Source: Escherichia coli
Lineage (GTDB): Bacteria; Pseudomonadota; Gammaproteobacteria; Enterobacterales; Enterobacteriaceae
DNA length: 64,000 nucleotides
Assembly (NCBI RefSeq): GCF_044647545.1
Contig: NZ_CP172818.1
Strand: one strand, 5' to 3'
The notes beneath the pieces are model-generated. The model had not been told where the DNA came from. It saw nothing but the letters and a program-made list of their open reading frames with translations, and made no database searches. The position numbers and the translations under genes were made by a program. Shown here in pieces: positions 50,025 through 51,054 of this stretch (within the stretch, counting starts at the first letter, position 1; each line of letters opens with the position of its first letter).

Positions 50025-51054
50025 GGGCATTGATATCCCGTATGCCACAGACCCGGCAGGTAACCGCCTGCCCGACCCGGAGCTGCACCCGGACAGCACC
50101 CTCAGCATGTGGCCGGATAACCGTATCGCCCGTGACGCGCACTACCTTTACCGGTATGACCGTCACGGCAGGCTGACAGAGAAAACCGACCTCATCCCGG
50201 AAGGGGTTATCCGCACGGATGATGAGCGGACTCACCGGTACCATTACGACAGCCGGCACCGGCTGGTGCACTACACGCGGACACAATACGCAGAGCCGCT
50301 GGTCGAAAGTCGCTATCTTTACGACCCGCTGGGCCGCAGGGTGGCAAAACGGGTGTGGCGGCGTGAACGGGACCTGACGGGCTGGATGTCGCTGTCACGG
50401 AAACCGGAAGTGACCTGGTACGGCTGGGACGGCGACCGGCTGACCACGATACAGAACGACAGAACCCGCATCCAGACGGTTTATCAGCCGGGGAGCTTCA
50501 CGCCACTCATCAGGGTCGAAACCGCCACCGGTGAGCTGGCGAAAACGCAGCGCCGCAGCCTGGCGGATGCGCTTCAGCAGTCCGGCGGCGAAGACGGTGG
50601 CAGTGTGGTGTTCCCGCCGGTGCTGGTGCAGATGCTCGACCGGCTGGAAAGTGAAATCCTGGCTGACCGGGTGAGTGAGGAAAGCCGCCGCTGGCTGGCA
50701 TCGTGCGGCCTGACGGTGGCGCAGATACAAAACCAGATGGACCCGGTGTACACGCCGGCGCGAAAAATCCACCTGTACCACTGCGACCATCGCGGCCTGC
50801 CGCTGGCGCTTGTCAGCACGGAAGGGGCAACAGAATGGTGCGCAGAATACGATGAGTGGGGCAACCTGCTGAATGAAGAGAACCCGCACCAGCTCATCCG
50901 CCTGCCGGGTCAGCAGTATGATGAGGAGTCCGGCCTGTATTACAACCGCCACCGCTATTATGACCCGCTGCAGGGGCGGTATATCACTCAGGATCCGATT
51001 GGGCTGAAGGGGGGATGGAACCTGTATACACGCGCCGGGATATTCTACTCCTGA
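50025..51054 (+). pseudogene. ybfO: Orphan Rhs C-terminal core fragment, truncated just after [10 protein letters not shown]
   Basis: About 1 kb around 99% identical to rhsC 48165..49163; no start codon at the homology boundary; reads into an H-repeat fragment. Confidence 0.8.

Follow-up and report, generated by a model that had tools for sequence, protein, structure and literature searches.

An Rhs element lies between ybfA and ybgA in a stretch of Escherichia coli DNA of 64,000 nt (contig NZ_CP172818.1; the whole stretch is called the window below). It consists of a leader, a full-length rhs gene ('rhsC'), ybfB, an AT-rich spacer, a second and incomplete rhs core (the orphan), and an array of H-repeat (H-rpt) sequences followed by the right end of the element (Table 1). 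The G+C content is 62-63% in the core, 40% in the tip of rhsC, 32% in ybfB, 27% in the spacer and 37-43% in the H-repeats, which is the classical Rhs pattern.

Table 1. Features of the Rhs element at the ybfA-ybgA site, in window coordinates
Feature	Coordinates	Strand	Remarks
Rhs element left end and leader (rhsA/B/C-type upstream region)	45375..45478	+	directly after ybfA terminator; alignment to K-12 and ST648 rhsB leaders
Main rhs gene 'rhsC', 1394 aa	45480..49664	+	PAAR-like N-terminus, YD-repeat core, K-12 RhsC-type C-terminal tip
Repeat copy 1, 3' core, codons 899-1227	48174..49159	+	62% G+C; self-comparison
rhsC tip: junction and polymorphic C-terminal domain	49160..49664	+	40% G+C; alignment to K-12 RhsC
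ybfB, presumed immunity gene of the rhsC tip, 326 nt	49664..49989	+	alignment to K-12 ybfB
AT-rich spacer between ybfB and orphan, 45 nt	49990..50034	+	27% G+C; in frame with orphan, without start codon
Repeat copy 2, orphan (dissociated) Rhs core fragment	50035..51020	+	self-comparison; RHS_core profile match
Displaced-tip remnant: third base of N codon and LYT	51021..51030	+	identical to start of DUF4329-type tip (LYTYPLSPVNGMDPLGL...) at rpmE-yiiX
5-nt filler CGCGC at truncating junction	51031..51035		between two identity blocks
Divergent ISAs1/H-repeat transposase gene fragment, 141 nt	51036..51176	+	approximately codons 28-68, internal TGA; other H-rpt copies 78% identical; compared with K-12 ybfQ
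Complete H-repeat (ISAs1 family, ISEc1-like), 1292 bp	51177..52468	+	transposase ORF 51322-52458, 378 aa, intact
Second, defective H-repeat copy	52469..53336	+	without IRL, truncated after FEWKG
Rhs element right end	53337..53393	+	like the right end of K-12 RhsC, but almost all T's missing; ybgA flank from 53394

The main gene scored 2615 bits with the NCBIfam RHS_core profile NF041261 (cut-off 2000), its residues 1-1244 aligning to profile positions 1-1261, and can be counted as a member of this family. The GGWN motif occupies residues 1224-1227 and the DPLGL motif residues 1240-1244. The tip differs from that of K-12 RhsC in a single residue; neither the tip nor YbfB matched a family in Pfam or NCBIfam. 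In the window ybfB is frameshifted by the loss of one nucleotide (T7 to T6 at 49677-49682), which leaves an 85-aa ORF starting at an internal ATG at 49732, and a sequence identical to it is flagged as frameshifted by PGAP in strain FDAARGOS_497. The leader upstream of the main gene departs from the K-12 and ST648 rhsB leaders by base deletions only, all of them single-base and specific to the window.

Comparison of the window with itself (blastn and base-by-base comparison) revealed an ungapped direct repeat of 986 nt between the 3' part of the rhsC core and the orphan, with 10 mismatches (98.99% identity, E = 0) and an offset of 1861 nt. Seven of the ten differences are synonymous, the remaining three being Q1066L, T1108A and M1129I. 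A direct repeat of the rhsC 3' core with about 99% identity, carrying Q to L, T to A and M to I substitutions, had been described in the first-pass annotation, and both the repeat and the substitutions were confirmed; the limits given there (48165-49163 and 50025-51025) were too wide by about 10 nt at the 5' side and by 4-5 nt at the 3' side. Upstream of 48174/50035 there is a diverged patch of 8 nt, preceded by a match of 7 nt, which is why a repeat-finding program placed the start at 48159/50020. Just downstream of the first copy mismatches occur at 49160, 49161 and 49163. The two copies are separated, as had been claimed, by the rhsC tip and ybfB, and in addition by the 45-nt spacer.

The orphan frame is open for 354 codons, yet it has no start signals of its own. 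There is no in-frame ATG, GTG or TTG in 49990-50106; the frame has its first possible start at 50107, an ATG that is not preceded by a Shine-Dalgarno sequence and would give an ORF (50107-51054) of 315 aa. With NF041261 the orphan (49990-51051) scored 726 bits, far below the cut-off of 2000, and it covered only positions 906-1247 of the 1261 profile positions. The orphan is thus a fragment and not an RHS_core member gene. In two respects it has the structure of a dissociated rhs module: its core is truncated at the 5' side and from codon 899 on is nearly identical to that of the upstream gene (see above), and it possesses no start or export region, the PAAR-like N-terminus being absent. Together, the repeat and the profile coverage bear out the earlier description of the orphan as a 3' core fragment of the upstream rhs gene.

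In other respects the orphan differs from such modules. Its match to the Rhs_assc_core model stops at position 61 of 76, so that the orphan is without DPxGL, the motif at which an Rhs toxin tip begins, and without the PxxxxDPxGL-plus-toxin arrangement. After GGWN the frame continues for ten sense codons only and then reaches a stop codon at 51052-51054, in agreement with the annotated stop 11 codons past this motif. The absence of a toxin tip, also noted in the first-pass annotation, is evident from the end of the frame, from the end of the profile match and from tblastn searches, which detected neither a DUF4329-type nor a ybfO-type tip anywhere in the 64-kb window. Nor was an immunity gene detected: the window contains no significant match to dsORF-f3 or ybfC (the sole matches to dsORF-f3 had E values of 0.02-0.86, and none was located 3' of the orphan), and the orphan is followed directly by the ISAs1 fragment.

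The arrangement rhsC-ybfB-orphan is already known; it has been annotated in K-12, and many E. coli genomes possess it. The boundary formed by ybfB, the spacer and the 5' end of the orphan was found, with at least 98.8% identity, in 2638 of 5426 complete E. coli genomes, i.e. in about half of them. A comparison with the ybfO-ybfC region of K-12, which had been proposed as a check, showed the arrangement in the window to be homologous to K-12 ybfO. In K-12, as in the window, the orphan (ybfO, b0703, a pseudogene, with ybfC) is located at the ybfA-ybgA site, downstream of an rhsC tip and ybfB that are 99.5% identical to those of the window; it has the same spacer and the same core 5' boundary, and is followed by an H-repeat array, which in K-12 consists of three H-repeat remnants. 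Unlike the window orphan, which has neither, ybfO has kept its full 169-aa tip and ybfC. In K-12 there are 21 differences between the main and the orphan copy, which have an extra 9 nt compared with the window copies; ybfB is intact there, and the K-12 element reaches 71 nt further to the left. The repeat period in K-12 (1871 nt) equals that of the window plus the 9-nt core indel and the one T missing from ybfB.

The closest counterpart of the element was found at a different chromosomal locus. Positions 45479-51030 (5552 nt) show 100% identity with the rhs locus that strains of the ST648 lineage, such as FDAARGOS_497 (CP033850), carry between rpmE and yiiX. The identical block takes in the main gene, ybfB with its frameshift, the spacer and the orphan core, and ends 10 nt beyond this core. 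In these strains the orphan runs on for 164 codons (LYTYPLSPVNGMDPLGL followed by a DUF4329 domain, PF14220, E = 3.6e-13), unlike in the window, and is followed by the gene of 'RHS element protein dsORF-f3'. In all 24 contigs that were read (of 64 index blocks) the exact RhsC of the window was encoded at rpmE-yiiX. In O157:H7 the same locus carries the DUF4329-type tip (LYT...) on the main gene, and the cassette made up of the rhsC tip and ybfB is missing; the O157 and the ST648-like states differ by exactly one repeat period. The name 'RhsF/RhsFI' in PMC7618764 belongs to a different nomenclature (ECs0604, S-loop 44) and was not equated with the rpmE-yiiX locus.

These comparisons show that one and the same cassette precedes three different ends, of which the K-12 one bears the ybfO tip, that of the ST648 lineage the DUF4329 tip and that of the window no tip, and that loci with and without the cassette are one period apart. 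Cassettes and boundaries shared by different tips are what the C-terminal displacement model of Jackson et al. 2009 (PMC2935791) describes; the model invokes homologous recombination with a circular core-tip intermediate. The dissociated rhs tips reported in the same work from Serratia marcescens Db11 and E. coli likewise consist of partial cores located 3' of an intact gene, with cores almost identical to the resident core and with different tips. Those fragments comprise a partial core and a recognisable tip, whereas the window orphan is a core only. We consider it probable (roughly 0.85) that the 986-nt repeat was left behind by C-terminal displacement of Rhs and that the tip of the orphan was lost later by deletion.

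The proposed course of events is as follows. The cassette would correspond to one period (1861 nt), made up of the 3' core from codon 899, the RhsC-type tip, ybfB and the 45-nt spacer. It probably entered a resident rhs gene through a single homologous crossover inside the core, and this crossover would have furnished the full-length gene with a new tip and immunity gene. The end of the resident core, still joined to its own tip, would thereby have come to lie downstream, as an orphan devoid of promoter and start codon. At a later stage the DUF4329-type tip of the orphan and dsORF-f3 may have been removed by a deletion that joined codon 3 of the tip to the ISAs1/H-repeat fragment. The direction and the mechanism of the original insertion are what we infer: the comparison of the O157 and ST648-like states fits insertion and deletion equally, as the same recombination can proceed in either direction. 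No match to the cassette was found on phages, and its 'plasmid' matches were limited to four records of 0.28-4.8 Mb, which are chromosomal in appearance.

Two direct copies of 99% identity at a distance of 1861 nt resemble the product of a recent duplication, and one could imagine that the 3' end of rhsC was duplicated locally in tandem and the downstream copy subsequently decayed, no cassette having been inserted. Such a duplication would, however, have copied the tip as well, whereas the orphan begins a different tip (LYT..., DUF4329 type). Moreover, a third tip (ybfO) is found behind the same orphan boundary in K-12, and the tip of the orphan sits on the main gene in O157. Since the tip remnants differ from the upstream main tip, an origin by tandem duplication was rejected; we regard it as very improbable.

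The main gene and the orphan of the window differ at 10 sites and the main gene and ST648 rhsB at only 2, compared with 22-35 differences from the positional counterparts in K-12. A 9-nt deletion is common to both window copies, and the K-12 and O157 copies do not have it. To judge from these sequences, the core copies evolve in concert. Under the displacement reading their near-identity would be upheld by continual core recombination (gene conversion) within a lineage. Repeated conversion from expressed cores would also fit as the cause of the low dN/dS (0.1-0.25 in every main/orphan comparison) and of the complete absence of stop codons from the orphan cores.

Low dN/dS and a frame that is intact for 354 codons could also be taken as signs that the orphan is functional as it stands, either as a 315-aa Rhs C-terminal shell fragment translated from 50107 or as an internal core promoter for the downstream genes. 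A site resembling the sigma-70 consensus in 10 of 12 positions is present at 49889-49916, and internal promoters in rhs cores have been reported in Salmonella and EHEC (PMC7043789, PMC7618764). However, conversion from expressed cores accounts for the low dN/dS, and the promoter and terminator scan yielded consensus matches at chance level only: seven promoter-like matches were found, against 3.8 ± 1.9 expected from shuffled sequence, i.e. about 1.7 sd above expectation. The missing Shine-Dalgarno sequence before 50107, the junk read-through at the end of the frame and the lack of DPxGL, toxin and immunity gene also argue against a function, and PGAP treats the equivalent orphan features as pseudogenes. 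An independent function was rejected on the grounds that start signals, cleavage motif, toxin and immunity gene are all missing, and appears highly unlikely to us. The window orphan is a core-only pseudogene, a dead remnant rather than a spare weapon.

The junction at which the orphan is truncated (51030/51036) is clean on both sides. On the left the sequence is 100% identical to the natural rpmE-yiiX locus up to 51030, and on the right the ISAs1 fragment is present with the same left boundary in the rhsB locus of ST648, with 100% identity from 51036 to 51160. The last seven of the ten orphan tail codons are an out-of-frame read-through into the filler and this fragment. The complete H-repeat downstream can be assigned to the ISAs1 family by its length of 1292 bp, by its transposase (417 bits with NF033564, cut-off 70) and by its inverted repeats, which are 21 nt long, differ at four positions between IRL and IRR (IRL, CAGGGAAAGATCACGTAACGC) and begin with CAGGG, as ISAs1 terminal inverted repeats in ISfinder do. 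The exact 378-aa transposase is common in E. coli. The second H-repeat copy has lost 15 G and 3 C as single bases relative to a natural copy, from which it differs by only 3 substitutions.

In spite of its clean sides the orphan/H-repeat junction itself was not encountered elsewhere. It was absent from the 5426 complete E. coli genomes (megablast and blastn), and no instance of it was retrieved when the GTDB species representatives and JGI metagenome contigs were scanned for exact 27-mers. The 315-aa orphan ORF had no exact match in the called-protein index, and neither the left nor the right chromosomal junction of the element had a full match among the 5426 genomes. In the nearest relatives as judged by the flanks, which belong to ST648, the ybfA-ybgA site is empty (at 45374/53394); the flanks of these strains show no mismatch to the window over 14.7 kb on the left, and over 4.3 kb on the right they depart from it by a single gap of 4 nt.

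Several segments of the window have properties of a different sort. Positions 3021-5327 represent an 81.7% identical version of an ST648 gene. The ts/tv ratio is 0.57, changes fall equally on first, second and third codon positions, and short indels number about 66; C has been lost and A gained directionally, and there are homopolymers 9-13 nt long. The segment adjoins a poly-A run of 28 nt, and no better match to it was found among E. coli genomes. Positions 13465-13650 correspond to an ST648 gene from which the G's have been dropped and which collapses into a poly-A run of 49 nt. Close to the element there is a G-free stretch of 43 nt (45371-45413) and a T-free stretch of 61 nt (53330-53390), the latter being a K-12-type element end with the T's removed. 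The ORFs of the second H-repeat copy and of the 3.4-kb zone had no exact protein on record. Near 62.2 kb the sequence switches abruptly from 100% identity with ST648 to 100% identity with the phylogroup-A strain P12b; this switch came to light through a YbgO-like protein whose exact matches were in genomes of phylogroup A. These zones cannot be natural divergence, and the window is partly non-biological. The corrupted zones and the mosaic of lineages bear on every other finding made from this window. The sequence in which the repeat is embedded is clean and natural.

As the truncating junction is unique and the window contains corrupted segments, the tipless state may be an artefact. We see a substantial chance, somewhat short of even, that the repeat is genuine and that the tipless end, and possibly also the placement of the whole block at ybfA-ybgA, arose in the production of the sequence, be it through a chimeric or gap-filled assembly or through synthetic or generated sequence; a real orphan would in this case have kept its tip and immunity gene. 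The complete identity of 45479-51030 with another locus, at which the exact RhsC was found in every contig read, points in this direction, as do the empty ybfA-ybgA site of the nearest relatives, the failure to find the truncating junction and both element-chromosome junctions elsewhere, the absence of the window-specific ORFs from the record, the base-specific drop-outs near the element, the mutational pattern of 3021-5327 with the two poly-A runs, and the switch of lineage near 62.2 kb. On the other hand, both sides of the truncating junction consist of natural sequence (see above), and the element possesses a leader of its own, H-repeats arranged in tandem and a right end of the K-12 type, as would be expected of a true element of the rhsC locus. 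An IS-associated deletion of an orphan tip is also biologically plausible.

If the window is faithful, a 5.5-kb block would have been copied very recently from rpmE-yiiX to ybfA-ybgA, between two Rhs loci of one lineage. The copying could have taken place by ectopic conversion extending from the start of core homology to the end of the orphan core, and the same event would have removed the tip and the immunity gene of the resident orphan. We consider this unlikely. If true, it would mean that the homogenisation of Rhs loci with one another has been caught in the act, with a core-only orphan as its product, which would be of modest interest.

The arrangement of the two copies had been taken to permit tip-switching by homologous recombination. 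As a general principle this holds. Recombination between a main and an orphan rhs gene has been seen experimentally in Salmonella by Koskiniemi et al. 2014 (PMC3967940), where the main core became fused to the orphan toxin, and the two states of the rpmE-yiiX locus are one period apart (see above). For the copy in the window the claim does not hold, as there is no tip to be gained. We infer that recombination of the RecA type between the two copies would remove a segment of 1861 nt including the rhsC tip and ybfB. The predicted recombinant would encode an Rhs protein of 1237 aa without the DPxGL autocleavage site, without toxin and without an immunity gene. Because the orphan has no tip, recombination between the repeats would amount to a disarming loss-of-function deletion and not to a tip switch.

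The system studied in Salmonella Typhimurium LT2 (STM0291/STM0292; PMC3967940) resembles the window in that a start-less orphan with a nearly identical core stretch lies 3' of a full-length rhs gene. The homology arm is 522 bp with 95% identity in Salmonella, as compared to 986 bp with 99% identity in the window. In LT2 recombination across this stretch attaches the orphan end to the main core, at the cost of the main tip and its immunity gene. The orphan there encodes an active toxin and immunity pair, so that the recombinants gain a weapon, whereas recombinants in the window would lose one.

Conserved homology arms followed by a variable end, kept silent 3' of an expressed gene, are also found in orphan cdiA-CT/cdiI modules (Poole et al. 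2011, PMC3150448) and in the mafB and pilS silent cassettes of Neisseria. These belong to unrelated protein families and, in contrast to the window orphan, have retained their variable ends. An analogy between Rhs displacement and such silent cassettes is drawn in PMC2935791.

Rhs orphans, near-identical core arms and recombination between main and orphan genes are textbook features of polymorphic toxins, and the repeat has little value as a discovery. Taken together, the O157, ST648-lineage and K-12 loci provide a clean illustration of the cassette model, and the product of recombination between the two copies in the window would disarm the locus instead of re-arming it.

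Set against ST648, the closest relative lineage of the window flanks, the entire 8-kb Rhs element (45375-53393) is an insertion. In ST648, ybfA and ybgA lie one base apart, and the flanking sequences showed no divergence right up to the junctions. The boundaries of the element differ from those in K-12, whose element has 71 additional nt on its left side.

Between the orphan, the tipless second copy of the rhsC 3' core, and the first H-repeat, the segment 51036-51176 is a divergent fragment of an ISAs1 N-terminal region, which has 78% identity to the other H-repeats and contains an internal TGA. 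The left boundary of this fragment is common to two Rhs loci, the one in the window and the rhsB locus of ST648 (ST648 sequence stretch L003, 9001-9126), whereas the sequences upstream of it differ between the two. In the window copy, about 14 extra nucleotides lie ahead of the following H-repeat's IRL.

The edges of the Rhs element show base-specific drop-outs. In the leader (45375-45478), no G occurs over 43 nt. The defective second H-repeat (52469-53336) differs from a natural copy by single-base deletions of 15 G and 3 C, and by only three substitutions. The right end of the element (53337-53393) corresponds to the K-12-type sequence from which 31 T's are missing, and this loss creates a T-free stretch of 61 nt (53330-53390).

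Two further zones depart from their ST648 counterparts. The first, 3021-5327, is the counterpart of a gene annotated as 'rhomboid family intramembrane serine protease' together with its upstream region. Its identity to ST648 is 81.7%, whereas that of the flanking sequence is about 100%. The 300 substitutions (ts/tv 0.57) are evenly spread over the codon positions (91/90/86), and they are accompanied by about 66 indels of 1-4 nt and by a base bias in which C was lost and A gained. Homopolymers of 9-13 nt are present, and no ORF longer than 110 amino acids was found within the zone. Among complete E. coli genomes there was no better match than ST648. The character of the zone suggests corrupted or synthetic sequence rather than divergence.

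The second zone, 13465-13650, is the counterpart of the start of a hypothetical gene in ST648 (sequence stretch L015, 15545-15974). It reads like the ST648 sequence minus its G's, and G is absent over stretches of 44 and 84 nt. A poly-A run ends its degenerating part, after which 100% identity to ST648 resumes abruptly at 13651. The poly-A tracts of both zones are listed with other repeats and the tRNA genes in the table.

Poly-A tracts, tRNA genes and direct repeats in the window
Feature	Position	Remarks
Poly-A insertion, 28 nt	3051-3078	inside zone 3021-5327
tRNA array, seven genes	12514-13217	Gln(ctg) x2, Met, Gln(ttg) x2, Leu(tag), Met
Poly-A run, 49 nt	13588-13636	end of degenerating part of 13465-13650
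Direct repeat, 145 nt, 91% identity	32702-32845 and 37037-37181	

The tRNA array resembles the glnX-metT cluster of K-12. At this site only three tRNAs are annotated in the ST648 record, thus either the copy number varies or one of these two assemblies is collapsed here. Of the two copies of the 145-nt repeat, one is made up of the kdpE 3' end, and the other adjoins potE, about 90 nt past its 3' end, and is annotated in ST648 as a frameshifted partial winged-helix pseudogene.

An abrupt lineage switch was observed in 57591-64000. Over 57591-62186 the window matches ST648 at 100% identity, and beyond this segment ST648 carries different genes. The rest of the window, starting at about 62.2-62.5 kb, is 100% identical to the phylogroup-A E. 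coli P12b, and this part represents the K-12-like ybgO fimbrial region. Upstream of the switch, P12b and the window are 2-5% divergent.

Within the 3' end of ybfB (49664-49989) there is a sigma-70-like site (49889-49916; TTGATA, 16-nt spacer, GATAAT), a consensus match only (10/12), directed towards the orphan. The gene itself, which presumably confers immunity to the RhsC tip, has lost one T of a T7 run (now 49677-49682) and is thereby frameshifted; an 85-aa ORF starting at an internal ATG at 49732 is left. The frameshift is natural, because the same sequence occurs in the ST648-lineage genome FDAARGOS_497 and in related genomes, where PGAP annotates the gene as frameshifted.
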